A stretch of 64,000 nucleotides of DNA from Candidatus Zambryskibacteria bacterium RIFCSPHIGHO2_01_FULL_46_25 (GTDB lineage Bacteria > Patescibacteriota > Minisyncoccia > Phycocordibacterales > Zambryskibacteraceae). Made by a program: the position numbers and the translations under genes. The stretch covers positions 4,939 to 68,938 of the forward strand of contig MHVH01000006.1 of NCBI GenBank assembly GCA_001825155.1, given 5' to 3'. The first letter of the stretch is position 1; each line of letters opens with the position of its first letter. Below, piece after piece: positions 721 through 58,147 of the stretch. The notes under the pieces are model-generated. The model was not told the origin of the DNA. It worked only from the letters and a program-made list of their open reading frames with translations, and did not search any database.

Positions 721-1305
721 ATGATTTCAAGCCTTTCCGGCACGGTAAGATACAAGGACCTCCATAGCGTTGTGATAGACATCGGCGGGGTCGGATATAA
801 GGTGGCTGTGACCACGGATGTGGCTCTTGAGGCGCAACCAAGCTCCCCCATCTTCCTCTGGACACACCTGGCTGTCCGCGAGAATGCTCTCGACCTGTAT
901 GGTTTCCCGGATAAGGAAACCTTGGAAGTCTTCGAGCTTCTTATCACTATCCCCGGCATTGGACCGAAAACGGCTCTCGGCATCATGAACGTTGCCTCCC
1001 CCTCCATGCTCCGCCAGGCTGTGGCGAGCGGAGACACCACATACCTCACTCGCGTCTCTGGCATAGGCAAGAAGAACGCGGAGAAAATTGTGCTCGAACT
1101 CAGGGACAAGCTCAAAATAACCGAGACGGACGCTTCGACGGGCTCAGCGCAGGTAAGAGCAGAAGGAGATGCTCTCGAGGCCCTGGTCTCTCTAGGCTAC
1201 AGCGAGCGCGACGCGCGCGAAGCGTTGAAGAGAGTGCCTAAAGAAATTCAAGGGGCTGCGGAAAGAGTTAAGCACTCTCTTAAAATCCTAAGCACCAAAT
1301 CCTAA
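721..1305 (+). CDS. ruvA: Holliday junction DNA helicase RuvA
   Basis: GYKV and helix-hairpin-helix IPGIGPKTAL motifs; start set at the internal Met (MISSLSGTV) of ORF 694..1305; last 8 codons are encoded by the AAATCCTAA repeat. Confidence 0.85.
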   Translation: MISSLSGTVRYKDLHSVVIDIGGVGYKVAVTTDVALEAQPSSPIFLWTHLAVRENALDLYGFPDKETLEVFELLITIPGIGPKTALGIMNVASPSMLRQAVASGDTTYLTRVSGIGKKNAEKIVLELRDKLKITETDASTGSAQVRAEGDALEALVSLGYSERDAREALKRVPKEIQGAAERVKHSLKILSTKS

Positions 1306-1372
1306 ACTCTAAACAAATCCTAATGTTCAAAATTAAAAATTTAGGATTTAGAAATTAGGATTTAGGATTTTA
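1283..1372. repeat. cluster of AAATCCTAA units (minus orientation) followed by TTAGGATTT units (plus orientation), forming an imperfect long inverted repeat between ruvA and fpg
   Basis: Read directly: aaaatcctaagcaccaaatcctaaactctaaacaaatcctaa ... tttaggatttagaaattaggatttaggattt. Confidence 0.8.
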
Positions 1373-1377
1373 CTTTT

Positions 1378-2235
1378 ATGCCTGAATTACCAGAGGTCCA
1401 AACTACGGTAAACGGACTCAACAGAACCGTGCGCAATAGAAAAATCGTTGAAGTCTCAACGAGCTACAAAAGCGCTTATCATGCAGGCAAAGACAATATA
1501 AAAAACCCCGCATTTTTCAAAAAATTCAAAGAAATTGTCGAGGGCAGGAAAATTTTAAAAGCTGAGAGAAGGGCAAAGAATGTTCTCATTCATCTTTCGG
1601 GCGGACACACCATCATCGCCCACATGAAGATGACCGGACACTTCGTTTACGACAGGCCGAATTATCCATTTGTTCGTCTACAATTTAACCTTGACAATGC
1701 CAAGACCTTGGCATTGTCTGACATGCGCAAATTCGCCAAAGTTACGCTGGTAAATACTGCCGATGTGAATAAAAGCATGCATCTGGAACATCTCGGCCCG
1801 GAGCCACTCGAGAAAAATTTTCAATTTCCAAATTTCAATTTACAATTACACAAAAGGCCGAGGGCAAAAATAAAAACGGCCCTTATGGATCAAATTCTCA
1901 TCGCCGGAATCGGTAACATTTATTCCGACGAGATTCTCTGGAGAGCCGGGGTGCACCCCCTATCCGCCGTAAGCAAAATTCCCGCCAAAAATTTTAAACT
2001 CATGTTCGCTGCTATGAAAAAAGTTTTAAAAGAGGGCATAGATTTCGGCGGGGACTCGATGTCTGACTACCGGAATATCAAGGGCGAGAAAGGGAAATTC
2101 CAAGAACGCCACCGCGCTTACCGTCGCACAGGCAAGGCCTGTGGAAAAAAGGGTTGTAAGGGTGTGATAAAAAGAATTGTCGTCGGCGCCAGGAGCGCCC
2201 ACTTCTGCCCCATTCATCAGAAATTATATAAATGA
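1378..2235 (+). CDS. mutM: formamidopyrimidine-DNA glycosylase (Fpg/Nei family)
   Basis: N-terminal MPELPEV catalytic motif; C-terminal zinc finger CGKKGCKG...CPIHQ. Confidence 0.85.
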   Translation: MPELPEVQTTVNGLNRTVRNRKIVEVSTSYKSAYHAGKDNIKNPAFFKKFKEIVEGRKILKAERRAKNVLIHLSGGHTIIAHMKMTGHFVYDRPNYPFVRLQFNLDNAKTLALSDMRKFAKVTLVNTADVNKSMHLEHLGPEPLEKNFQFPNFNLQLHKRPRAKIKTALMDQILIAGIGNIYSDEILWRAGVHPLSAVSKIPAKNFKLMFAAMKKVLKEGIDFGGDSMSDYRNIKGEKGKFQERHRAYRRTGKACGKKGCKGVIKRIVVGARSAHFCPIHQKLYK

Positions 2236-2717
2236 AAACCTGCATCCTGATTTTAGAAAATCTGCGAAGCGTTGAGAATACAGCCTCGATTTTCCGCACT
2301 GCGGAGGGACTTGGTGTATCGAAAATAATTCTAGTCGGCACAACACCTGCGCCGATAGACAGGTTCGGTCGGAAGCGCGCCGATTTTGCCAAAGTTTCTT
2401 TGGGTTCCGAAGATATGATTGAGTGGAGTTATGTTGGGCAGGAAAATTTTCAATTAACAATTTCCAATTTGCAAAAGGAGGGATTCAAAATTATTGCGTT
2501 AGAACAGGATAGGAATTCAAATCCTTTGCAAGCTGTAAGCTCTAAGCTACAAGCTTTTGCCTTGATTGTCGGAAGCGAGGTAGAGGGGGTATCAAGGGGC
2601 ACCCTTGACATGTGCGACGAGATTCTAGAAATTCCAATGCGTGGCAAGAAAGAGTCTCTGAATGTCTCCGTCTCCACAGGCATCGCGCTCTATATGTTAT
2701 TATTGAATCATGCTTAA
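2232..2717 (+). CDS. TrmH/SpoU-family RNA 2'-O-methyltransferase
   Basis: SpoU-type motifs (ENLRSVEN, LIVGSEVEGVS, EIPMRG...SLNVSVSTGIALY). Confidence 0.7.
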   Translation: MKTCILILENLRSVENTASIFRTAEGLGVSKIILVGTTPAPIDRFGRKRADFAKVSLGSEDMIEWSYVGQENFQLTISNLQKEGFKIIALEQDRNSNPLQAVSSKLQAFALIVGSEVEGVSRGTLDMCDEILEIPMRGKKESLNVSVSTGIALYMLLLNHA

Positions 2718-4701: not shown

Positions 4702-5157
4702 AAGAGTTTTCTCGATGAAAGTTTCCGTCTCTTCTTCCCCTCTTCTTACCCGGTGGTAACCCTTGACCAAGTTTTCGGACAAGAGTTCCAGTTCTCCGGG
4801 TTTGAAATTTTTAATAAAACTTTTTGCCTTGCTGTACGGATATGGCTTCATCTCCGCTTCTTCGGCAGTCTTGGTGCGACTGGCGAGAAGCATAGTCTTG
4901 ACCTGCCAGAAAACTTTGTAGAAAACTTCTTCCGCTACCATCCCGGAAGCAAGCGCCTTTCGATAAATCACCCAGGCTTCTCTCTTATTTCGCCTGCCGA
5001 TGGCATCGGTCAAAGCAAATATATTGAATTCTCCCCGGCTCTTTAAGGCAAGGCCTTGGGAATCATCCTTAAGGCCTTGCCTTTCCCCGCCGAAAAGATC
5101 TTCCGAAGCGACTGTTTCCCCGAATAAGTTTTTCATATCTTTTCCATTTCTCCCCAA
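4690..5157 (-). CDS. DNA polymerase III delta-subunit (HolA) C-terminal domain-like protein; truncated, possible gene remnant
   Basis: FNIFALTDAIGRRNKREAWVIYRKALASGMVAEEVFYKVFWQVKTMLLA matches the HolA domain-III pattern; only 155 aa; overlaps polA stop and folD stop. Confidence 0.4.
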   Translation of the reverse strand: MGRNGKDMKNLFGETVASEDLFGGERQGLKDDSQGLALKSRGEFNIFALTDAIGRRNKREAWVIYRKALASGMVAEEVFYKVFWQVKTMLLASRTKTAEEAEMKPYPYSKAKSFIKNFKPGELELLSENLVKGYHRVRRGEEETETFIEKTLLGL

Positions 5158-7505
5158 TTTTTACCCGAATGCGCTTCGGCTACGATAGGCACACCTCGAC
5201 TTACGCTCGGGGCAAGCACCCCTTCCATGATTTTTTTGAAATTCTTGGCCACCTCATCCGCCAGCTCTTCGGAAACTTCGAAAACCAGTTCATCGTGTAC
5301 CTGGAGTACCAGGCGAACCTTGCCAGCCTCCCCGTTCTTCCTTATGTAATCATCAACTTTTTTCATAGCAATCTTGATGATGTCGGCTTGCGTGCCCTGG
5401 ATAGGAGCATTTACCGCCATGCGCTCAGCTTGCGCTCTGACATAAGGCAGAGGAGATTTGAACCCGGAGAAATATCGGCGCCGACCGAACATTGTCTCCG
5501 TATAGCCTCTGCGCGCCGTCTCGGCCTTAATCTTGTCAATATAAGCCGCAAGCCCGGCAAAGGTGCCGAAGTATTGATTGTAAAATTCCTGAGCCTCCTT
5601 CCTGTCAGTGCCGAGATTTTTCTGCAGGGCAGTAACACCCATGCCGTAGAGAATGCCGAAATTAATGGTCTTCGCTTTGACCCTCATCCCCTTGTCTACT
5701 TTATCGGCCGGCACCTTGAAAACCCGCGAAGCAACGCCGGCATGCACATCTTCGCCTCGTTTGAAAATATCAATAAGTTTCTTATCCCCCGAGAGAATGG
5801 CCGCCAGACGCAGTTCGATCTGGGAATAGTCGAGGGAGACGAGCTTATGCCCGTCTTCCGCTACAAAAGCGTTTCTGATAGCGCGACCGAGCTCTGTCTT
5901 GTTCGGAATGTTCTGGAGATTTGGGTTATTCGAAGCCATGCGTCCCGTTACCGCTCCATTCTGGAGGAAGGTGGAGTGCAGGCGGGAATCCCTGTCCAAG
6001 AGGGGCGGTATGGCGTCGATATAGGTCGAGAGAAGCTTCGAAAGTTCGCGGTAGTCGAGAATCAGGGCGATTATGCGGTGTTTGTCCCGCAACTTTTCAA
6101 GCTCTGACTCTCTTGTCGAGAGGGCGCCCCCGGGAGTTTTCTTCTGCCTCTTATCGGCGAGGCCCAGCTTCTCGAACAGCACGCTACCAAGCACTTTGGG
6201 AGAATTAATATTGAATTCTTCTCCCGCCTCCCGCCAAATTTCTTTCTCCAGGCGGGAAAGTTCTTTGTGATACGCGGCGGACAAGCCGGACAAAATTTTC
6301 TTATCGACCTTGATGCCCGTTTCATTCATCTTCTCAACAATAGTCATGAGAGGTTTTTCTATCTCTTCGAAAACAAATCTTACTTTTCTCTTATCAAGCT
6401 CCTGCTCAATAACCTTCCTCGCCTCTTTAATATCCTTCGCTTTGGTAAAATTCATCACATCTTCGACGGTTGGCGCAGTAATGTTCGAATCAATTACCCA
6501 CAGAGCAAGCGCCAACTCTTTCTCCTCTTCATTATTAACCCCCTCCGGTTTCACCACCTCCCCCTTGACAGGGGGAGGGTCGGATGCGGCTATCAATTTT
6601 TTCACTCTCTCGCTCAAGGTGCGGAAACCAAGCTCTTTGAAAAGTTCGAGAATATTTTCGAGTTTGAAATTTTCTCTCCACTCGGCAGGCAATTTGAAAT
6701 TAATCGGCGCGTCTGTGCGAATAGTCGCGAGTGTTTTCGAAAAGAGCGCCTCTTCTTCGTTCTCCTGCAGAAGGTTCTTTACGCGCTCAGTAATTGCCGC
6801 CTTCTTCCAATCATCATTCTTTTTCTTCAGCACTTTGTAAATTTCTTCTATCGTGCCAAATGATTGGATAAGGGATGTAGCTGTTTTCTCTCCGATTCCT
6901 TTAACACCAATAATGTTGTCCGACGGGTCACCGCGCAAACCCTTGTAGTCTATGAGCTTGTCGGGGGCGAAGCCGAATCTCTCAACCACCCTATCTTCAT
7001 CATAAATAATGGTGTCGTTGAGCCCTTTTTTAAGCGTATAGACCCGCACCTTCTTGCCACTCACGAGTTGCATGGTGTCCATGTCCCCAGAGGCGATAAT
7101 AATTTCAAGATTTAGGATTTGGGATTTAGGATTTAGGATTTCATGCACTATGGTGCCAATGATATCGTCCGCTTCGAAGCCTGGGCAAGAATAAATCGGA
7201 ATGCCAAAAACTTTAAAAATATCTTTCGCTCGCTCAAGCTGGAGCTCCAAGTTGGCATCGTTTTCCTTCCGTCCAGCCTTGTAACTCTCCGCTGCCTCGT
7301 GGCGGAAGGTCGGACCATGGAGGTCGAAGGCCGCCACAATATAATCGGGTTTCAAATCGTTAACAATTTTTATAAGCATGGCAACAAGACCATAGAGAGC
7401 ACCAGTTGGCTCGCCGGTGGAAGAAGCGGTGAAGTCCGGCAGCGCGTGATAAGCACGGTGAATAATGGCGTGCGAATCAAGTAAAATTAATTTCTTAGCT
7501 TTCAT
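5133..7505 (-). CDS. polA: DNA polymerase I (5'-3' exonuclease plus polymerase domains)
   Basis: N-terminal 5'-3' exonuclease motifs (LLDSHAIIHRAYHALP, GFEADD); polymerase motifs DYSQIELR and QVHDELVFE; contains an in-frame TTTAGGATTT repeat at 7108-7142. Confidence 0.9.
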   Translation of the reverse strand: MKAKKLILLDSHAIIHRAYHALPDFTASSTGEPTGALYGLVAMLIKIVNDLKPDYIVAAFDLHGPTFRHEAAESYKAGRKENDANLELQLERAKDIFKVFGIPIYSCPGFEADDIIGTIVHEILNPKSQILNLEIIIASGDMDTMQLVSGKKVRVYTLKKGLNDTIIYDEDRVVERFGFAPDKLIDYKGLRGDPSDNIIGVKGIGEKTATSLIQSFGTIEEIYKVLKKKNDDWKKAAITERVKNLLQENEEEALFSKTLATIRTDAPINFKLPAEWRENFKLENILELFKELGFRTLSERVKKLIAASDPPPVKGEVVKPEGVNNEEEKELALALWVIDSNITAPTVEDVMNFTKAKDIKEARKVIEQELDKRKVRFVFEEIEKPLMTIVEKMNETGIKVDKKILSGLSAAYHKELSRLEKEIWREAGEEFNINSPKVLGSVLFEKLGLADKRQKKTPGGALSTRESELEKLRDKHRIIALILDYRELSKLLSTYIDAIPPLLDRDSRLHSTFLQNGAVTGRMASNNPNLQNIPNKTELGRAIRNAFVAEDGHKLVSLDYSQIELRLAAILSGDKKLIDIFKRGEDVHAGVASRVFKVPADKVDKGMRVKAKTINFGILYGMGVTALQKNLGTDRKEAQEFYNQYFGTFAGLAAYIDKIKAETARRGYTETMFGRRRYFSGFKSPLPYVRAQAERMAVNAPIQGTQADIIKIAMKKVDDYIRKNGEAGKVRLVLQVHDELVFEVSEELADEVAKNFKKIMEGVLAPSVSRGVPIVAEAHSGKNWGEMEKI
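7108..7142. repeat. tandem TTTAGGATTT units embedded in-frame in polA (translated ILNPKSQILNLEI)
   Basis: agatttaggatttgggatttaggatttaggattt read directly. Confidence 0.85.
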
Positions 7506-24272: not shown

Positions 24273-24797
24273 CTAAGAACGTGGTTTTTCAAGAGAATCC
24301 ACCGATTTTAACGGCTCAACTGGTTGTTTAACTTGAGTATTATCGATAGGAGCCGTTGGGGCGGGAGTATTGCCATACAGCTGAGGTTTAAGAGTATTGA
24401 GGGTGCGAATATGTTCCATCGTTGGTCGGGCGGGACGTTTTGGCAGAGGCGGACCTTTTTGCTGTATTGGCTGAGCGGTAGCGCCCAGTATTTTTTTAGC
24501 CTTGTAATCCAAAATCAAAACAACCACGGCTCCGGTCCAGGCTGGGAGCGCGGCAAGAATCGGCACAATCTCGATGATGAAAGCTCCGCCCATGGTGGCC
24601 AGGCGCTTTGGCGTCATAAACTTCATTCCGTAAAGTTTGAACCAGACAAAGAAGGTGAGAAAGGCAAATATGCTTACCAGCCAATCCATAAATACAAAAG
24701 CCAGAAGCCACTGGAGCACATCGAAAAAGAGCGCCGTACAAACCATTAGAGCGATCGTATGGTTCTTTAATCCCCTTTCTTTATTCTGTTCCGGCAT
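24273..24797 (-). CDS. hypothetical membrane protein downstream of virB4
   Basis: Three to four TM helices then a Pro-rich tail; overlaps virB4 by 17 nt. Confidence 0.4.
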   Translation of the reverse strand: MPEQNKERGLKNHTIALMVCTALFFDVLQWLLAFVFMDWLVSIFAFLTFFVWFKLYGMKFMTPKRLATMGGAFIIEIVPILAALPAWTGAVVVLILDYKAKKILGATAQPIQQKGPPLPKRPARPTMEHIRTLNTLKPQLYGNTPAPTAPIDNTQVKQPVEPLKSVDSLEKPRS

Positions 24798-26664
24798 TTG
24801 GGTTCTCAGCGGCTTGTTTTAAGCGCTCTTGTTGGGCGCGGATGGCCTCGTCTTTGTCCTCGATGGATTCTTGCCGGGCCTTCTTGATAGCCAGAACTTG
24901 TGAAGGGTCGGAAGTAATAATCTGATCTTCCGTATAAGAAGCAATAGCCTTGATGGCAACATGTTTGAGTCCCGCGAAGAAGATTCCTTCTCCGACATCT
25001 GATTCGAGCAGAAGATATTTCTCTTCGTCTGTGAGATTGAAAGTTTTTTGCAGCTCGTCAATCGTCGCCGGAGATTGCTTGAGAAGCATTTGGATGGAAG
25101 AGTTGGTAATGATGGGTATGCCGTATGGAGATTTGAGGAAGTCGCCAACATCTTGAGTAATAGTTGCCACACCGAGGAAATATTTGCGGCCCCTTTTAAC
25201 AAGGCCCATGAGGAATGAGGCCGTGTCCTCCGACTTCATCATCCACCAGGCTTCGTCGATGACGAGCAGGCGCTTCTTGAGCTCCTTCCTTATCGCGTTC
25301 CATATATAGTGAGTAACGATGTACATGGCGATTGGTTTTAGCTCATCTTCCATGTCTCGGAGAGAAAAGACGACAAACTTCCTGTTTATATCCACATTCG
25401 AAGGCCTGTTGATGAATCCGGCCCAGGTGCCTTTCGTGTACTTAGAGAGTCGTTGTGCCAGTGATTCTCCCCCATCCATGCCCGAGAGCACGAGCTCAAA
25501 GTCGCTCATGAGCGGTGGCTCAATGTTTCGGAAGTCGGAATCGGCGGTAATATCTTTCAAGGCGTATGTCTCGGTAATAGCTCGGTCGATAATGGCATCC
25601 TCTTCCGCGGTAAGACCGCCCATCATAAGCCGGAAGAGGCCAACGAGGTTAATGATGTTACTGCGCAAAATGTTTGCGGCGCTCTCATCTGGACCAGGTA
25701 TTGGTAGGTCGAACGGATTGATGTGGTGTTCGGAGTTAAGCGAGATGTTGAAGTATCGTCCGCCGGTCGCTTCGGCCATGTATTCGTACTCTTTCTCCGG
25801 GTCAATGACTATGACTTCCGTATCGAACATCAAGGTGCGGAGAATCTCAAGCTTCGTCGCGTATGACTTGCCGGCGCCGGCCTTGGCGAAGGTAACCGAG
25901 TTGTAGTTCTCGAGGGAGAAGCGGTCGAAGAGGATTAGAGACGAGTTGTGGCGGTTGATGCCGTAGAGAATACCCTTGTCCGAAGTGAGGTCGAAGGATG
26001 TGAATGGGAAAAGGGATGAGAGGGGCGAAGAATTGAGCTTCGAGTGGACGTTGAGCTGGTCGTTACCGAGAGGCAGGGTGCTCTGGTAGCCCTGCTCCTG
26101 CTGGAAGAGGGCCGGCTTCACGTATATAAGCTTTGCCTCAAGAATCGACTTAATCTCGCTCTCCACCTTGTCGAGCTCATCCGAGCTGTCGCCGTAGATT
26201 GTGATGTAGAGGCCCACGTCGAAGAGTTTCTCTTGCGCTTGTTGGAGCTGGTCACGCAGATTCTCGAGGTCTTGATAGGCGACATCAAGCATTGGGTCAC
26301 GCACAAGACCCTTTTCTTCCCTTGTATGAATCTGGCTTTGTACCTCGGCTACCTTCCTTTGGAATTGACGGAGCACCTTGGATGTCTCGATGGGGTGGAC
26401 GAAGATTGAGACGTCGAAAACCTTGTCCATGTTTATAATCGGCGAGAACCATCCTTCAGAGAGATAGCGCGGGTATGAGATGACGAAGAAGCTTCTAAGA
26501 ATTTTCTCCCCCAAGTTAATTTCCTTGGGACTTACCTTCAGCGCCGAGGGTGCGATGATGTCCTTGAGCTCGAGGACGCCCGCTTCAAAGATTTCTTTAG
26601 GCAAAATTGACGAAATTTTCGCCTCCTCTTCCTTCTTGCCGATTAATTTATCAAAAAATCCCAT
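24781..26664 (-). CDS. virB4: VirB4/TrbE/CagE-family type IV secretion ATPase
   Basis: Walker A FAKAGAGKSYATK; Walker B LLVIDEAWWMM; C-terminal VirB4 signature GVATITQDVGDF. Confidence 0.8.
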   Translation of the reverse strand: MGFFDKLIGKKEEEAKISSILPKEIFEAGVLELKDIIAPSALKVSPKEINLGEKILRSFFVISYPRYLSEGWFSPIINMDKVFDVSIFVHPIETSKVLRQFQRKVAEVQSQIHTREEKGLVRDPMLDVAYQDLENLRDQLQQAQEKLFDVGLYITIYGDSSDELDKVESEIKSILEAKLIYVKPALFQQEQGYQSTLPLGNDQLNVHSKLNSSPLSSLFPFTSFDLTSDKGILYGINRHNSSLILFDRFSLENYNSVTFAKAGAGKSYATKLEILRTLMFDTEVIVIDPEKEYEYMAEATGGRYFNISLNSEHHINPFDLPIPGPDESAANILRSNIINLVGLFRLMMGGLTAEEDAIIDRAITETYALKDITADSDFRNIEPPLMSDFELVLSGMDGGESLAQRLSKYTKGTWAGFINRPSNVDINRKFVVFSLRDMEDELKPIAMYIVTHYIWNAIRKELKKRLLVIDEAWWMMKSEDTASFLMGLVKRGRKYFLGVATITQDVGDFLKSPYGIPIITNSSIQMLLKQSPATIDELQKTFNLTDEEKYLLLESDVGEGIFFAGLKHVAIKAIASYTEDQIITSDPSQVLAIKKARQESIEDKDEAIRAQQERLKQAAENPNAGTE

Positions 26665-26673
26665 ATATTCATT

Positions 26674-26738
26674 ATAAACCCTAAACCCTAAATCCTAAAC
26701 TCTAAATAAGCACCAAATCCAAAATAATAAGTCCTAAA
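26674..26738. repeat. half MITE-like repeat (TATAAACCCTAAA terminus plus AAATCCTAA units) immediately upstream of the virB4 start
   Basis: tataaaccctaaaccctaaatcctaaactctaaataagcaccaaatcc; shares the 17-mer aaatcctaaactctaaa with 1309-1325. Confidence 0.75.
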
Positions 26739-27105
26739 CATTGACAGCCTTGGCTTTCTCTAAAATTGAGCCAAACATTTTTCTAAACTCCACAGCCTCT
26801 TGTATCAGATCATTTCTTACTGATATTTCCTCAGTGTTAGGTTCAGCCAAAGAAAGCCAGTACTCACTCTCCTTAGCTTCTTTTCTAGAAATTTTGATAC
26901 GCATAAAAAAGTCCTTTCTACTAAGAGATTCATTAGCTTCAATGTAGTTTGCTCCTACGGAACCCGAAGAACGTATCAATTGCTTGCCATACTCAAAGTT
27001 CGGAGTTGTTTTAGGCAGCTTTTTGGTATAGTCTCTTACTTTTCTTGCGAAAACTAAACATCTGTCTTCCAAGTCATATTTTTTAGGATTTTGAATTTCG
27101 GACAT
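26734..27105 (-). CDS. four-helix-bundle protein (23S rRNA IVS protein / Avd-like family)
   Basis: YGKQLIRSSGSVGANYIEANESLSRKDFFMRIKISRKEAKESEYWLSL matches the family; residues 4-9 (IQNPKK) are encoded by a TTTAGGATTTT repeat. Confidence 0.65.
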   Translation of the reverse strand: MSEIQNPKKYDLEDRCLVFARKVRDYTKKLPKTTPNFEYGKQLIRSSGSVGANYIEANESLSRKDFFMRIKISRKEAKESEYWLSLAEPNTEEISVRNDLIQEAVEFRKMFGSILEKAKAVNV

Positions 27106-27111
27106 TAAAAT

Positions 27112-27146
27112 TTATTTAGGATTTAGCGCTTAGAATTTAGGATTTG
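27112..27146. repeat. TTTAGGATTT repeat units plus an adjacent palindrome
   Basis: tttatttaggatttagcgcttagaatttaggattt followed by caaaatgcgctaacgcattttg. Confidence 0.75.
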
Positions 27147-27155
27147 CAAAATGCG

Positions 27156-27794
27156 CTAACGCATTTTGATTGGCTTTTCCGTCTCACCTGGATTGAATGC
27201 TTTGTAGAAAAGCTCGATAGTCTCCTCTGTCCCCAACCGTGCAACCCTAATGCCGGAGCGCACAAGGCCCTGCTCTACCACGGACATGCGCTCCTCAAGC
27301 TGGCTTCTCTCCTCTTCGAAGCTGCTATTGCTCGTTTTCTTGTCTTTCCTTCCGCCGCCGATGCCAAGACTTGAGACGAAGTTACCTGCCGCTCCGACGC
27401 TGAGCGTTGCCGGGTTGTAGGGTACCACGATGAAGAAGTGCTTGGTCATAATGTTGGCATCCTCGGTAAACTTCTTGATGAATTCGATATATTCCCTGAC
27501 CTGAATCTTCAAAAGGTTGTTGGTCTGCTTCGTTTCTTGCCCCTCAAGAAGCGCGATGTATGGGCGTATGTCGAGCTTCCTCGACTGGACAAGTATCTGG
27601 ACCGAGAAATCGAGGGAGTTAAGGAAGTCTTGGAATTGGAGAAGAATGGCGTTTCTCTCGTCCTCGCTCTTGAGGGAGAAGTTGAGTGAGGAACAGAGAA
27701 GAATAGCCCGCATGCCGCCGTCCTTAAGTATGACGACACCATCGCGCACCTCCTTGATGGGAACGAACTCTTGAGTGGCATTACTAGATGGCAT
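27156..27794 (-). CDS. hypothetical protein of the type-IV-secretion-like locus
   Basis: Start set at MPSSNATQEF (ATG 27792-94) rather than the TTG-extended ORF ending at 27830; no family recognised. Confidence 0.4.
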   Translation of the reverse strand: MPSSNATQEFVPIKEVRDGVVILKDGGMRAILLCSSLNFSLKSEDERNAILLQFQDFLNSLDFSVQILVQSRKLDIRPYIALLEGQETKQTNNLLKIQVREYIEFIKKFTEDANIMTKHFFIVVPYNPATLSVGAAGNFVSSLGIGGGRKDKKTSNSSFEEERSQLEERMSVVEQGLVRSGIRVARLGTEETIELFYKAFNPGETEKPIKMR

Positions 27795-27800
27795 ACATCT

Positions 27801-27924
27801 AGTATAAACCCTAAAATCATTAAATCCCAAATCCTAAGCACTAAATTCTAAATAAATCCCAAATTCCAAGTATAAAAGACCCAAACCATTTAGAGTTTAG
27901 GATTTAGGGTTTAGGGTTTATACT
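27801..27924. mobile_element. MITE-like element (~124 bp) with 15-bp terminal inverted repeats AGTATAAACCCTAAA / TTTAGGGTTTATACT and internal AAATCCTAA units
   Basis: Read directly; termini are perfect reverse complements; no coding capacity. Confidence 0.7.
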
Positions 27925-27930
27925 ATAGCC

Positions 27931-28368
27931 ATGCGATTCCAAGTACCGCAATTTATAGAAGTCGAGGATAAAATTTTCGGTCCTTTGACCTTCAAACAAT
28001 TTGTCTACGTTGCCGGCGGAGGAGGCATCTGCGTTATCCTCTTCGTTTTCCTGCCGAAATTCCTGGCCATTCTCCTGTCCGTGCCCATAGTTGCATTCGC
28101 TGGAGCACTCGCGTTTTACAAGCCCAACGACAAGCCCTTTATAAACTTTGTGGAATCATTCTTCCACTACAGCCTCAAAAGCAAGCTCTATATATGGAAG
28201 AAAACAGACAACTTACAACCAACAACCGACAACAAAATAAGCGCCAAGCCGATAGAACAGATTTACGTACCAAAGTTGTCGGAATCGAAACTCAGAGAGC
28301 TTACGTGGAGCCTTGATATCAAAGAAAACAGGAATCCCATCACAGACGAGAAATCCAATAGGATTTAA
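27931..28368 (+). CDS. PrgI/VirB3-like type IV secretion membrane protein
   Basis: VPQFIEVEDKIFGPLTFKQFVYVAGGGGICVILFVF resembles the PrgI N-terminal pattern; two TM helices; last 6 codons encoded by the TAGGATTT repeat. Confidence 0.5.
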   Translation: MRFQVPQFIEVEDKIFGPLTFKQFVYVAGGGGICVILFVFLPKFLAILLSVPIVAFAGALAFYKPNDKPFINFVESFFHYSLKSKLYIWKKTDNLQPTTDNKISAKPIEQIYVPKLSESKLRELTWSLDIKENRNPITDEKSNRI

Positions 28369-28386
28369 TGCTTAGGATTTAGAGTT

Positions 28387-28953
28387 TTACTGCAGTGGTT
28401 CCCTGTACGGATCGACTCCGCTTGGATAAGTGGATTTCAATGGCTCATTTACCGGCACCTGAGCCGTTTGGGATTTTTCTTCTTCCTTATTCAACTTATT
28501 AACCTTATTCAACTCGACGCTCGCGGCCTCGTGTACTCCCTCACCCGGCTTAGTCGCGAGCGTTTCTTTCGCAAAATCCGGTTCGAGTACGGGGAGAGTG
28601 GTGGGGGTTGTTGCTGTCGGTGCTTGAACAGATGTGTTTTTTTCCAATTCCTCGACTTTTTGAGAAATTACTTTAAAAATTTTCTCATTTGCCTCTGTTG
28701 CAATGTTGAATGCCAAGTTTTCATCAATTTCTGCCTCGCGCGCCATGTTTGCGACGTAATCATCCGGACTCTCGAAGCCATAGAGAATAAACATCGTTTC
28801 TCTCTCGACAATTTCTGCCTGCTCCAGCTTCAAATTATGCAGTCCGGCAATCTGGTTAACGACAGATTTCCACGGAACAGCGCTGAACGCCTTCTGCAGT
28901 GCCGGCGGCAGTTTTTTCAATTGCTCTTCAACCATAGAGTTCTCGTCATCCAT
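28387..28953 (-). CDS. hypothetical protein (acidic, Thr/Pro-rich linker)
   Basis: ORF track only. Confidence 0.4.
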   Translation of the reverse strand: MDDENSMVEEQLKKLPPALQKAFSAVPWKSVVNQIAGLHNLKLEQAEIVERETMFILYGFESPDDYVANMAREAEIDENLAFNIATEANEKIFKVISQKVEELEKNTSVQAPTATTPTTLPVLEPDFAKETLATKPGEGVHEAASVELNKVNKLNKEEEKSQTAQVPVNEPLKSTYPSGVDPYREPLQ

Positions 28954-35878: not shown

Positions 35879-36721
35879 TCAGCTGACGAGAAGTCTCGCC
35901 AGGGCTCCCCATTTTTCGGCTGGAAGGTCTTCAGCTCTCAAGTTTGGGTCCAAGTTGAGTTTTCCGAAAGCTTCATTCACCTTTTTCTTGTCAAAGTGCT
36001 TGGAAAGATTCGATGAGAGCTTCTTTCTCTTGGATTGGAAGCCTGCTTTGAGCAATTTGAAGAAAAATTCTTCCGAAATTGTGGACGCTCGGCTTCCACG
36101 ATTGAAGAAATTCCTAGAAATGTCCTCGACTGTGATGATTGCCGAATCCACCTTCGGCGCAGGAGCAAATGAGCCCGCCTTGACTGTTTCCACATACCGC
36201 GGTCTCCCGTAAACCTTGACCGAAATCGACAAAATACTCTCTTTCGTGAACGCCTGGCGTCCACGCCCACCCACTATTCTTTCTGCCACCTCTTTTTGAA
36301 CCAGAAGCACCATGCGCTTGGGCTGACACTCAGCGGACAAAAACTTTTTCAGAATCGCGCCGGTTATGTTGTAAGGAATGTTGGCGACAACTTTGTAATT
36401 TTCTTGCCTGCCGGCAGGCAGGGCAATTTTCAATTTAAAATTTTCAATTTCGAAATTCAGGATGTCATCATGAATCAGAATTAATTTCCCAGAATTTATC
36501 TCGTTTTGAAATTTGATTTTTAAATTTTCATATAAATTATCATCTTTCTCTACCGCGACAACTTTCGCACCGGTTTCCAAAAGTTTTTCAGTTAGTGCTC
36601 CCGTGCCGGGACCAATTTCTAAGACTGTGTCGCCGGAATTCAATCTTCCTGCCTCGACAATCGCGGCAAGAGCGCGTTCGGATTTTAAAAAATGCTGACC
36701 CAGAGATTTTTTCGCTCTCAT
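35879..36721 (-). CDS. ksgA: 16S rRNA (adenine1518/1519-N6)-dimethyltransferase KsgA/RsmA
   Basis: LGQHFL; SAM motif LEIGPGTGALT; NIPYNITG; carries in-frame repeat insertions at 36425-36458 and 36077-36100. Confidence 0.85.
   Translation of the reverse strand: MRAKKSLGQHFLKSERALAAIVEAGRLNSGDTVLEIGPGTGALTEKLLETGAKVVAVEKDDNLYENLKIKFQNEINSGKLILIHDDILNFEIENFKLKIALPAGRQENYKVVANIPYNITGAILKKFLSAECQPKRMVLLVQKEVAERIVGGRGRQAFTKESILSISVKVYGRPRYVETVKAGSFAPAPKVDSAIITVEDISRNFFNRGSRASTISEEFFFKLLKAGFQSKRKKLSSNLSKHFDKKKVNEAFGKLNLDPNLRAEDLPAEKWGALARLLVS
36077..36100. repeat. REP-like palindrome copy 1 (inside ksgA, translated RGSRAST)
   Basis: aattgtggacgctcggcttccacg; the 27-mer aaattgtggacgctcggcttccacga is identical to copy 2. 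Confidence 0.85.
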
Positions 36722-55972: not shown

Positions 55973-57445
55973 TTATTTCACCTTGTATTCTTCTCGGATT
56001 TTTTCGACTTCTTTCTCGTCTTCGCTCGCGTTTTTTGCTCTCGCTTCCCTGCCGACACGGGCAAGTTCTTGCGGGTCGAGGTCGTATAGTTCCTTTACTC
56101 GCGTTTCCAAATAATTTTTGTCATTCTTCTTCGGTTCGTCGAGCACTTCGGAGAGAAGTATTTCGAGAATGAAGCCTACGTGCGGACCCGGGCCCGCTTT
56201 AGTCAGCTTCATAATATCTTCGCCACCGACACTAAGCTGTTTTACGGAAATGGGATCACGCATAACCTCTTCTATCATCGAGTGGTACTTGCGCAGGCGA
56301 TACGGCGTCTCCTTGGGTCTCCCGGTGCCTATTCGATCGGCTGCCCTCATGTTCATAAGGTCCCAGACAAGGTCCGGGCCGACATTTCTCACCATTCTTC
56401 GCACCGCGGAGAGCGTAATTTGCTCCGTATCGGAGAAGAACATGTGCCAGCGCACGAGCTTGTGTGTCTTCTCGATTATTTCCTTTGAGAATTTCAAATT
56501 CTCAAGGACTTTTCGCGTAATACGCGAACCCACCACCTCGTGTCCATAGAAAGTGGGCTGACCATTCTTCACGGCCTTGGTGTGCGGCTTGGCAATGTCG
56601 TGGAAGAGCGCGGACAAACGGACGTGGAGAGGAAAATTTCTCTTCGCGGCATGGTTAAGAGAGCGAAGTAAGTGCTCCCAGACGGTGTAGGCATGCGCCT
56701 GATTCTGTTCCACTCCTATCCCCTTCTCGAATTCTTCCGAAATATATTTGAGTATGCTGAGCCGCGCGCACATCTCGAGTGCTATGCCCGGCTCGGGAGA
56801 CATAATAATTTTTGCGAACTCGTCTCTTATTCTTTCTTTCGAAATTTTCTCAAGCAGGTGCGTGCATTTGCTTATCGCTTCCAGCGTTTCGTGTTCTACG
56901 GCGAAACCGAGCTCTGCCGAGAGGCGTAGCGCGCGGAAAATGCGCAAAGCGTCTTCGCCGAAGCGTTCCTCCGGCTTCCCCACCGTGCGAATAATCTTTT
57001 TCTCAATATCTTTCTGCCCGCCGAATGGATCAATAGGATTTAGGATTTGAGATTTAGGATTTATGTCCAGAGCAATTGCATTCATAGTAAAATCTCTTCT
57101 CGCCAGGTCGTCTTCGAGCTTGTTCGCCCACTCTATTTTGTCTGGATGGCGTGCGTCGGAATATTCTGACTCGAGTCTGTACGGAGTGACTTCAACAATG
57201 CCAGTCGTCTCAGTCTTCACTCCCACTGTGCCGAAATCGTTTTCGTAGAAAGAATCCGGGAAAAGTTCAATGATCTTTTCCGGCGTGGCAATAGTGGTGA
57301 TGTCCCAATCTTTCGGTGTGCGGCCCATAATCAAATCGCGCACGCATCCGCCAACGAGAAAATTCTCGAATCCGGCATCGCTCAAGACGCGCGAGATTTC
57401 TCTCACATCTTTTGGAATTTCAAATTTAGATTTAATGGATGCCAT
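55973..57445 (-). CDS. cca: CCA-adding tRNA nucleotidyltransferase (polymerase head plus HD domain)
   Basis: Start set at MASIKSKF; GGCVRDLIMG...DWDIT head motif; HD motif (HDIAKP); in-frame TTTAGGATTT repeat at 57034-57064. Confidence 0.8.
   Translation of the reverse strand: MASIKSKFEIPKDVREISRVLSDAGFENFLVGGCVRDLIMGRTPKDWDITTIATPEKIIELFPDSFYENDFGTVGVKTETTGIVEVTPYRLESEYSDARHPDKIEWANKLEDDLARRDFTMNAIALDINPKSQILNPIDPFGGQKDIEKKIIRTVGKPEERFGEDALRIFRALRLSAELGFAVEHETLEAISKCTHLLEKISKERIRDEFAKIIMSPEPGIALEMCARLSILKYISEEFEKGIGVEQNQAHAYTVWEHLLRSLNHAAKRNFPLHVRLSALFHDIAKPHTKAVKNGQPTFYGHEVVGSRITRKVLENLKFSKEIIEKTHKLVRWHMFFSDTEQITLSAVRRMVRNVGPDLVWDLMNMRAADRIGTGRPKETPYRLRKYHSMIEEVMRDPISVKQLSVGGEDIMKLTKAGPGPHVGFILEILLSEVLDEPKKNDKNYLETRVKELYDLDPQELARVGREARAKNASEDEKEVEKIREEYKVK
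57034..57064. repeat. tandem TAGGATTT units embedded in-frame in cca (translated INPKSQILNPID)
   Basis: taggatttaggatttgagatttaggattt. Confidence 0.85.
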
Positions 57446-57604
57446 TGGTTTAATTATACATTTTGTTGTGGTCAGGAATATTCTGCTCGCCGTCGCTCGC
57501 AGAATTTCACGACCCTGACTCGGCTGTTTTGCGAGGCCGCAAAACATGCCTCCGTCCCGCACTAGTAGCGGAAATCAGCAGCAGTGCTGATTTCCGGCTC
57601 TAGT

Positions 57605-57677
57605 GCGCCCAGAGGGACTCGAACCCCCAACCCCTTGTTCCGAAGACAAGTACTCTATCCATTGAGCTATGGGCGCA
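57605..57677 (-). tRNA. tRNA-Arg, anticodon TCG
   Basis: Minus-strand cloverleaf: acceptor GCGCCCA/TGGGCGC; anticodon stem CTTGT/ACAAG with loop CTTCGGA; T-arm GGGGG-TTCGAGT-CCCTC. Confidence 0.65.
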
Positions 57678-57739
57678 ACAAACATATCCTACAATAATAC
57701 TCGATTTTTTTCCTTTATTACGCTATTATCTTTTCACTA

Positions 57740-57810
57740 GCGGGTATGGTTCAGTGGCAGAACAATTGGTTGCCAATCAATTGACGGGAGTTCGATTCTC
57801 CCTACCCGCA
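57740..57810 (+). tRNA. tRNA-Gly, anticodon GCC
   Basis: Acceptor GCGGGTA/TACCCGC; anticodon loop TTGCCAA; T-arm GGGAG-TTCGATT-CTCCC. Confidence 0.65.
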
Positions 57811-57828
57811 CATGGTGGCGCTCATAGT

Positions 57829-57899
57829 CGGGGTGTAGTACAGCAGTAGTATACACGCTTCGGGTGCGTGAGACCCGAGTGCGATTCTCGGCACCCCGA
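57829..57899 (+). tRNA. tRNA-Pro, anticodon CGG
   Basis: Acceptor CGGGGTG/CACCCCG; anticodon stem CACGC/GCGTG with loop TTCGGGT; T-arm CCGAG-TGCGATT-CTCGG. Confidence 0.6.
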
Positions 57900-57917
57900 C
57901 TCTGAGCATCACCGAAG

Positions 57918-57988
57918 CGGGCTGTAGTATAGTGGTAGTATATATGCTTTGGGAGCATAAGGTCTGGGTTCGATTCCCAGCAGCCCGA
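57918..57988 (+). tRNA. tRNA-Pro, anticodon TGG
   Basis: Acceptor CGGGCTG/CAGCCCG; anticodon stem TATGC/GCATA with loop TTTGGGA; T-arm CTGGG-TTCGATT-CCCAG. Confidence 0.6.
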
Positions 57989-57996
57989 CACGTAAA

Positions 57997-58067
57997 CGGA
58001 GTATAGTATAGTGGTAGTATACATCCATGGGGTGGATGAGGCTCCGGTTCGATTCCGGGTACTCCGA
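57997..58067 (+). tRNA. tRNA-Pro, anticodon GGG
   Basis: Acceptor CGGAGTA/TACTCCG; anticodon stem CATCC/GGATG with loop ATGGGGT; T-arm CCGG-TTCGATT-CCGG. Confidence 0.6.
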
Positions 58068-58076
58068 AACAATAAT

Positions 58077-58147
58077 GCGGGACTAGTTTAGTGGTAAAAC
58101 AACAGTTTTCCAAACTGTGGTCGGGAGTCCGATTCTCCCGTCCCGCA
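58077..58147 (+). tRNA. tRNA-Trp, anticodon CCA
   Basis: Acceptor GCGGGAC/GTCCCGC; anticodon stem CAGTT/AACTG with loop TTCCAAA; T-arm GGGAG-TCCGATT-CTCCC. Confidence 0.7.

Follow-up and report, generated by a model that had tools for sequence, protein, structure and literature searches.

The stretch analysed here (the window) is a 64,000-nt part of contig MHVH01000006.1 of a Candidatus Zambryskibacteria genome. Our subject is a heptanucleotide repeat translated in frame inside two essential genes of its minus strand, polA (5133–7505), encoding DNA polymerase I, and cca (open reading frame (ORF) 55973–57562), encoding the CCA-adding enzyme. Both reading frames are long and intact, as the original prediction had held; polA scores 834 bits against the NF004397 profile, and the cca product matches the CCA-enzyme models. 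The best PolA homologs are 77–83% identical, and the named ones among them come from Candidatus Zambryskibacteria, which marks the host as a Zambryskibacteria-like bacterium of the Paceibacteria (Patescibacteria). The polA array (7109–7141, minus strand) encodes I123–L133 (ILNPKSQILNL), and its units in the sense of the gene are AAATCCT, AAATCCT, AAATCCC, AAATCCT and AAATCTT, that is, 4.7 copies of ATTTAGG/ATTTGGG on the plus strand. The cca array (57034–57063, minus strand) encodes INPKSQILNP with the units AAATCCT, AAATCTC, AAATCCT and AAATCCT, or 4.3 plus-strand copies of TAGGATT. Each is thus a solo, imperfect tandem array of heptamers (ATTTAGG, ATTTGGG and ATTTGAG on the plus strand), and not of the 10-mer proposed initially; the translation across it reads HEILNPKSQILNLEII in PolA and LDINPKSQILNPIDP in the CCA-adding enzyme.

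The abundance of these units is far beyond what an AT-rich sequence would produce by chance. The string TTTAGGATTT occurs 14 times in the window against 0.39 expected, a number that none of 100 shuffled sequences reached, and 11 arrays match at least 17 of the 21 bases of (AAATCCT)3, compared with 0.1 in shuffles. The period is specific as well: the window together with related loci (906 kb) contains 31 arrays of period 7, and 0–6 for each of the periods 5, 6 and 8–11. The arrays being imperfect, each exact 14–19-mer that we tested matches just 1–3 of the copies in the window.

Two neighbouring peculiarities may be recorded. PolA has only 790 residues: a short linker joins its 5′ nuclease and polymerase domains, with a predicted local distance difference test score (pLDDT) below 50 at residues 307–324, and the part of the profile that covers the 3′–5′ exonuclease domain is mostly unmatched. 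The CCA-enzyme gene lies directly beside a cluster of seven tRNA genes (57604–58147).

The similarity of the two peptides, which had been taken as a sign of a mobile element, is an arithmetical outcome of the 7-nt period. Because three does not divide 7, any 21-nt stretch of (AAATCCT)n, whatever the frame, is translated as a circular permutation of I-L-N-P-K-S-stop, so the shared NPKSQILN peptide is automatic and carries no information by itself. This cycle includes a stop codon. A perfect (AAATCCT)n array has TAA in all three frames, and its opposite strand has TAG in all three, yet polA is read as ATC CTA AAT CCT AAA TCC CAA ATC CTA AAT CTT and cca as AAT CCT AAA TCT CAA ATC CTA AAT CCT: in both genes exactly the unit that would bring an in-frame TAA reads CAA, by a T-to-C change. 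In the PolA array of a related lineage (L001) the corresponding codon is AAA. Arrays of the AAATTGA flavour would yield TGA, and that codon is TCT in L009; other PolA and RsmA orthologs have Cys or Trp there, residues whose codons are a single step away from TGA. Where an array forms the end of a gene it is left unrepaired: RuvA and PrgI both terminate at an array-borne TAA.

Alignment of orthologs, one of the checks suggested with the original prediction, demonstrates that both segments are lineage-specific. The PolA segment from GTIV to IIIASGDMD comprises 16 residues (of the xKKDKNxE type) in 92 of 120 close orthologs and 20 in the window, where 12 codons stand in place of the 8 ancestral ones; LKKDKNTE, the ancestral form, is found in the nearest relative (P0001/L003, 86% identity), and PolA loops are plain in Paceibacteria at a greater distance (Adler-, Nomura- and Kaiserbacteria). 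Similarly, the turn that follows RRDFTMNAIAL in the CCA-adding enzyme has 9 residues in 84 of 120 orthologs and 13 in the window, while the nearest relative (P0122/L149, 86%) has the ancestral loop with NILTGELV. Because some 36 nt take the place of about 24 nt in both genes, these events are overwrites and not clean insertions. Proto-units are present in the empty sites: the cca of L149 has AATATCCTAAC, and many polA genes have AAAAATCTnGAAAT.

Structural models place both arrays in surface loops, as had been supposed. In PolA the array residues span the end of a helix (112–124), a loop (125–132) and the start of a strand (133–139) in the 5′ nuclease domain, modelled with a pLDDT of about 80, and both mycobacterial Pol I and Taq polymerase show a 5-residue gap at this position. 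In the CCA-adding enzyme the array is modelled, with low confidence, at the tip of a beta hairpin between strands 100–102 and 111–113; the pLDDT of the AlphaFold head domain being 40–50, this assignment rests mainly on the alignment with a solved CCA enzyme (PDB 6ibp), which has a 5-residue gap at exactly the array-bearing turn.

The unit of polA and cca, AAATCCT, is also the unit of larger elements in the same genome. The most complete one is a cassette of 489 nt (26665–27155, minus strand) located between the stop codon of virB4-N (27156–27830) and the start codon of virB4-C (24781–26664). It consists of a 5′ arm (27111–27152) with the units AAATCCT, AAATTCT, AAGCGCT and AAATCCT, a gene for a four-helix-bundle protein (26734–27105, minus strand; TIGR02436 with 3.2e-20, PF05635 with 8.8e-15), and a 3′ arm (26668–26742) whose units are complementary to those of the 5′ arm. 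The N-terminus of this protein, IQNPKK, derives from the heptamer array. We rejected the idea that the cassette splits a single virB4 gene: the N-domain is a separate protein of about 210 residues in most relatives, and in L141 and L142 the two genes are adjacent, 3–13 nt apart. The cassette is therefore an insertion between two operon genes. A 9-bp hairpin, CAAAATGCG-ctaa-CGCATTTTG (27147–27168), spans the virB4-N stop codon, the last codons of the gene forming one arm and the first bases of the inserted cassette the other.

Two further elements lack an ORF. The first (1281–1377, plus strand; left arm 1281–1325, right arm 1339–1372) lies just before the fpg start codon, replaces the last codons of ruvA and supplies its stop, so that the RuvA tail KILSTKS is array-derived. 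The corresponding empty site is seen in L001 and L004, where the two genes overlap (ATGCCTGA); the fpg ATG of the window has about 93 nt directly in front of it. This element folds at -25.5 kcal/mol (z -5.3) and aligns to the 5′ end of the cassette, the start-codon region included: TAATGT(T/C)C..AAATT.AAAAT. The second (27800–27928, with no strand assigned) lies between virB4-N and an inverted prgI and folds at -38.4 kcal/mol (z -7.4). Its right arm is identical to the 3′ arm of the cassette at 35 of 35 bases, and the alignment of its left arm covers the 5′ arm and continues for ~20 nt into the ORF. As each of them aligns to the cassette ends including the ORF start, both hairpins are derivatives of such a cassette by internal deletion.

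The intergenic copies recovered by our array scan (1281–1381, 26668–26742, 27111–27152 and 27814–27928) had been described before as copies of the repeat. They are present, but they form inverted pairs, and the elements at 1281–1377 and 27800–27928 fold into long imperfect hairpins. Distant copies have in common a 35-nt identical stretch and a recurrent variant unit, AAGCAC[CT]. The Rfam scan of the window returned only tRNAs, with no RNA family at the hairpins and no rRNA. At 26675–26692 and 27903–27920 the arrays read (AAACCCT)n/(TTTAGGG)n, which is the plant-type telomere repeat, a coincidence of the unit sequence.

Comparison of filled and empty junctions indicates that the gains at ruvA/fpg and virB4-N/virB4-C are clearly recent in this lineage. 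The same comparison, made by eye, revealed no target-site duplication at these two junctions, and neither a transposase nor a reverse transcriptase was seen near the elements. The proposal of a dispersed insertion element stands as far as a dispersed DNA family and its insertion at these two intergenic sites are concerned; inside the genes the change is a replacement.

One more array, at 28357–28387 (plus strand), lies at the 3′ end of prgI (27931–28368) and encodes the tail EKSNRI and the stop; like the RuvA tail, the IQNPKK N-terminus and the intergenic copies, it had been attributed to the repeat family before, and all of these were recovered as array-derived. The prgI gene is on the plus strand, inverted with respect to virB4-N and virB4-C on the minus strand, and in L142 the order prgI > virB4-N > virB4-C is co-directional with gaps of 2–13 nt. 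The inverted segment, in the region 27800–28387, is flanked by oppositely oriented arrays (27814–27873 and 28357–28387), which suggests that the inversion resulted from recombination between them.

The PolA and CCA-enzyme loops, and a loop of RsmA, carry different heptamer flavours and other mini-hairpins in related lineages. In the PolA loop, arrays of AAATCCT are found in L001 and also in P0071, of AAATCAC in L004, of an AAATTCA-like unit in P0068, and of AAATTGA in L009 and about ten proteins, the L009 array adding just one residue; L008 and also P0025 have there the hairpin AAGGCAAGACCTT-taaagattccc-AAGGTCTTGCCTT. In L005 the cca turn contains an entire element with two arms of AAATCCG units, which spans about 90 nt and keeps the frame. 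In L006 this turn has a hairpin of the same AAGG..CCTT design as the PolA hairpin of L008, with a different stem of which the complementarity is kept, in L007 a GC-rich hairpin, and in L150 a decayed CGACCAA-type array common to about a dozen orthologs. The AAGG..CCTT hairpins represent a second family of mini-elements (AAGG-nnnnn-CCTT, taaa..gattccc, AAGG-nnnnn-CCTT; L008:783–900 in polA and within 682–2172 in the L006 cca), in frame at the same two loops and translated as CQGKTFKDSQGLAF and PEGSTLNHDSQGRT. In L001 (3162–3198) an N-terminal extension of PolA built of AACAAGA/AACAAGG heptamers is a second in-frame array of a different flavour in the same gene.

In-gene arrays in the window are not confined to polA and cca, and those in fpg, in a SpoU-like gene and in rsmA go beyond the original prediction, as do the PF05635 gene within inverted arms, the ORF-less derivatives and the stop repair. 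The fpg gene has an older AATTTTC-type array (1816–1847, plus strand) that encodes NFQFPNFNLQL and is kept in L001, L004 and L009, and the SpoU-like methyltransferase gene (2232–2717) has an AATTTNC-type array (2445–2474, plus strand) with two additional residues and a divergent sequence as compared to L001 and L004. The rsmA gene (35879–36721) contains an in-frame AAATTGA-type array (36391–36451, minus strand) with a nested 21-nt GC-rich palindrome (36403–36423; core TGCCTGCCGGCAGGCA) encoding ALPAGRQ; the nested peptide recurs in the PolA loop array of P0093 as AVPAGRQ, between KLKI and EN. Among 120 orthologs the RsmA loop varies from 12 to 28 residues, many variants having a 7-residue periodicity. 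A near-identical RsmA from another assembly (P0391) reads ALPDGRQ where the window has ALPAGRQ, and this single visible strain difference falls within the nested palindrome.

The architecture of a PF05635 gene between inverted heptamer arms is widespread. All three PF05635 genes of the Paceibacteria loci examined have such arms, each built of a different unit. A metagenome scan for four-helix-bundle genes gave 80 loci, of which 73 were usable; in these, the highest period-7 score in the 120 nt next to each end of the ORF averaged 14.4 upstream and 15.6 downstream against 9.4 in controls, and the periods 5, 6, 8, 9 and 10 were not enriched. Where strong arrays were present on both sides, the pairs were inverted in 35 of 37 loci. 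Pairing between the two flanks of a locus exceeds that of shuffled sequence (p = 7e-12) and also that with a flank taken from a different locus (p = 0.006). The protein has the N-terminus xQN(S/P)K, which the final units of the 5′ arm encode; about 84% of the genes point the same way as both their neighbours, and one contig (L072) carries two cassettes of different flavours. Outside the Candidate Phyla Radiation (CPR), plasmid homologs come mostly from Nostoc and its relatives, and flanking heptamer arrays were found at each of the six plasmid loci examined, which represent four phyla (Anabaena cylindrica, N. punctiforme, N. flagelliforme, Pseudanabaena, Bernardetia and Chlorohelix). In N. flagelliforme four perfect AATTCAA units face four TTGAATT units; the gene-plus-arm architecture thus occurs in Nostoc, Anabaena, Bacteroidota and Chloroflexota plasmids. 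Armed four-helix-bundle genes of the A. cylindrica plasmid pANACY.01 (L143) and of a Pseudanabaena plasmid (L146) are situated between cas2 and cas1, or beside cas1, wedged inside an operon as the window cassette is. No relative of the four-helix-bundle gene was detected in viral contigs, which were searched for phage carriage.

We consider it probable that the repeats of polA and cca stem from a selfish palindromic family built of heptamers, of which they would be solo arms, copied at the DNA level and surviving in tolerant loops. The structure of the family, its lineage specificity, the loop location, stop repair, recurrence and the association of gene and arms are established by the data. 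In its full form the cassette has about five AAAnnCn units as its 5′ arm, a PF05635 gene starting in the last units of this arm, and a complementary 3′ arm; internal deletion of the gene gives the ORF-less hairpins, and single arms are found alone as well. An existing array may serve as the source of new copies, by template switching or gene conversion with priming on A-rich seeds of the AAAT type; this would account for the overwriting, for the lack of target duplications and for the match between in-gene units and the arms of the same genome. Survival of an in-gene copy demands a loop tolerating four extra residues, maintenance of the frame and loss of the stop of the perfect array; because survival is so restricted, the same few loops are hit repeatedly across lineages. 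The intergenic hairpins are presumably co-transcribed with the host genes and, by analogy with rRNA intervening sequences, probably form double-stranded RNA stems; the four-helix-bundle protein or RNase III might also have a role.

Several facts speak against this proposal. The original prediction called the element active; we saw no insertion that is polymorphic between strains, and L001 and L002, which come from different samples, are identical. As stated above, target-site duplications, a transposase and a reverse transcriptase were not seen near the elements. A copy model does not predict that polA, cca and several of the other flavours all show the same net gain of 12 nt; such uniformity could mean one old insertion followed by interspecies recombination and later homogenisation. 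The independent gains are deduced from a neighbour-joining tree that is weakly resolved. The focal arrays have neither the AAGCAC unit nor a fold, so that their descent from a cassette arm, as opposed to local slippage, rests on the identity of the unit and on the L005 case. Two further ideas were also rejected: the arm flavour is not set by the clade of the four-helix-bundle protein (identity 0.605 within a flavour versus 0.598, p = 0.27), and the hairpins show no excess of sigma-70 promoters or intrinsic terminators over shuffles, although this last evidence is weak since the scan demands G+C-rich stems.

Among the alternatives, one supposes a single ancient insertion per gene, inherited vertically, exchanged as alleles between species and homogenised to the current flavour, with nothing moving recently. 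It would explain why four PolA array flavours and two CCA array types share an identical position and the gain of four residues, and it agrees with the conservation of the fpg array across four lineages and of the RPTTDNRQ-type CCA loop in about 12 orthologs. However, 92 of 120 orthologs, among them the sister of the window gene, retain the ancestral 16-residue PolA loop with its sequence conserved, so that many precise losses would be needed, and the recent gains at ruvA/fpg and virB4-N/virB4-C conflict with a family at rest; we regard this scenario as unlikely.

Local microsatellite growth, i.e., slippage in place from an A-rich seed of the loop, with the likeness between copies reflecting a genome-wide mutational bias, appears to us improbable too. 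The proto-units in empty sites fit it, as do a net length change that is no multiple of 7, the single residue added by the L009 array and the many period-7 unit types of these genomes. Slippage does not, however, explain why the copies share a composite structure and the 35-nt identical stretch, why a complete two-armed hairpin stands in frame in the L005 cca, why array sizes gather at about 4–5 units rather than spreading widely, or why polA and cca use the very unit of the cassette and hairpins of their own genome. That the repeats are retained because they serve a function themselves (as a binding site for the pentameric four-helix-bundle protein or another regulator, an mRNA signal or a useful protein loop) is very improbable: four-helix-bundle genes and heptamer arrays are associated across phyla, and heptamer direct repeats are classical regulator sites, but sister lineages have unrelated sequences in the same loops, most orthologs lack arrays, and the focal arrays are unstructured and without an Rfam match.

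In its effect on proteins the family described here works like the Rickettsia palindromic elements, and its architecture is like that of the S23p intervening sequences or of the cyanobacterial short tandemly repeated repetitive (STRR) sequences. The Rickettsia elements, reportedly described by Ogata et al. in 2000, are likewise small dispersed repeats in frame in conserved genes, tolerated at the protein surface and absent from close orthologs. They differ in being non-tandem palindromes of 100–150 bp inserted whole, whereas the focal copies are single heptamer arms of 30–33 nt overwriting a loop; among the copies described here, only the insert in the L005 cca is a whole palindrome, and the family has a gene-bearing parent. 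The STRR heptanucleotide repeats, said to have been reported by Mazel et al. in 1990 and by Vioque in 1997 also inside an RNase P RNA gene, are similar as dispersed tandem heptamers of about 3–8 units that are mostly intergenic and now and then lie within a functional gene. The unit of the window is AAATCCT and not that of STRR1–3 (CCCCAGT and the like), and the host is Zambryskibacteria-like, not a heterocystous cyanobacterium. To our knowledge, STRRs have not been reported as in-frame parts of proteins or as arms of gene cassettes; in the Nostoc and Anabaena plasmid loci examined, STRR-like arrays flank PF05635 genes as inverted arms. The nested palindrome of rsmA and the nested peptide of the P0093 PolA array resemble the small dispersed repeats of Nostoc punctiforme, which according to Elhai et al. 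in 2008 reportedly insert into heptamer arrays, though there is no sequence relation and both layers are translated here.

By their alignments, the ORF-less hairpins relate to the cassette as a miniature inverted-repeat transposable element (MITE) does to its parent. Like MITEs and repetitive extragenic palindromic (REP)/REPIN elements, they are short hairpins that are not autonomous and come from, or rely on, a parent carrying a gene; unlike them, they have no transposase-bound terminal inverted repeat, target-site duplication, RAYT or transposase gene, and the parent encodes a four-helix bundle. Phase-variable simple sequence repeats (contingency loci) are perfect, and their copy number varies between strains and shifts the frame. 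The arrays described here are imperfect and in frame; L001 and L002, the sole independent pair of assemblies, are identical.

In the S23p-bearing intervening sequences of the 23S rRNA of Coxiella and Leptospira, an inverted-repeat stem surrounds a PF05635 ORF with heptamers directly upstream (PMC4990558); in Coxiella these are two or three tandem GACAGAT units, which differ in number between strains, and RNase III cuts at the first of them (PMC4990558). Such sequences are also embedded in a host transcript and have long been suspected to be selfish or mobile. The window cassette is different in that it occupies a protein-coding operon, not helix 25 or 45 of 23S rRNA, and its ORF-less and single-arm derivatives are dispersed in the genome, some being translated within essential genes. 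A survey of rRNA insertions in CPR bacteria found the PF05635-type four-helix-bundle family inside these insertions as well (PMC11270868). The TAACTGA repeats of Beggiatoaceae, cyanobacteria and Bacteroidetes are abundant intergenic heptamer direct repeats of distant phyla, for which roles in translation or rearrangement were suggested and no link to PF05635 or coding sequences is drawn (PMC4679880). Our literature search returned no report of heptamer or palindromic in-frame elements in CPR protein genes.

One can tentatively go further and suggest that armed PF05635 genes form one self-propagating class spanning phyla, which would include the 23S rRNA intervening sequences, the STRR repeats and the CPR hairpins, with an Avd-like pentameric protein recognising the arrays and promoting their copying, also into loops of essential CPR enzymes. 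We regard this extension in full as doubtful. Its broader part, that PF05635 genes with heptamer arms represent one widespread class of selfish cassette, is plausible. The idea that five repeats would suit a pentameric protein was not retained: the median array length is 4.4 units, with a broad spread and a lower bound fixed by the detection threshold.

It is mainly from Rickettsia that selfish DNA ending up as part of essential proteins is well known. The present case comes from the CPR, the members of which have tiny, strongly reduced genomes, and it recurs at the same loops of PolA, the CCA-adding enzyme and RsmA. In marker proteins the arrays produce spurious length variants and unusual low-complexity peptides, and the (AAACCCT)n copies, being identical to the plant telomere repeat, could mislead screens for contamination or telomeres. 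One architecture links S23p-bearing rRNA intervening sequences, cyanobacterial heptamer repeats and a very common bacterial four-helix-bundle gene, which had been described apart from each other, and the genetic tractability of Nostoc and Anabaena makes it possible to test what the four-helix-bundle protein does.

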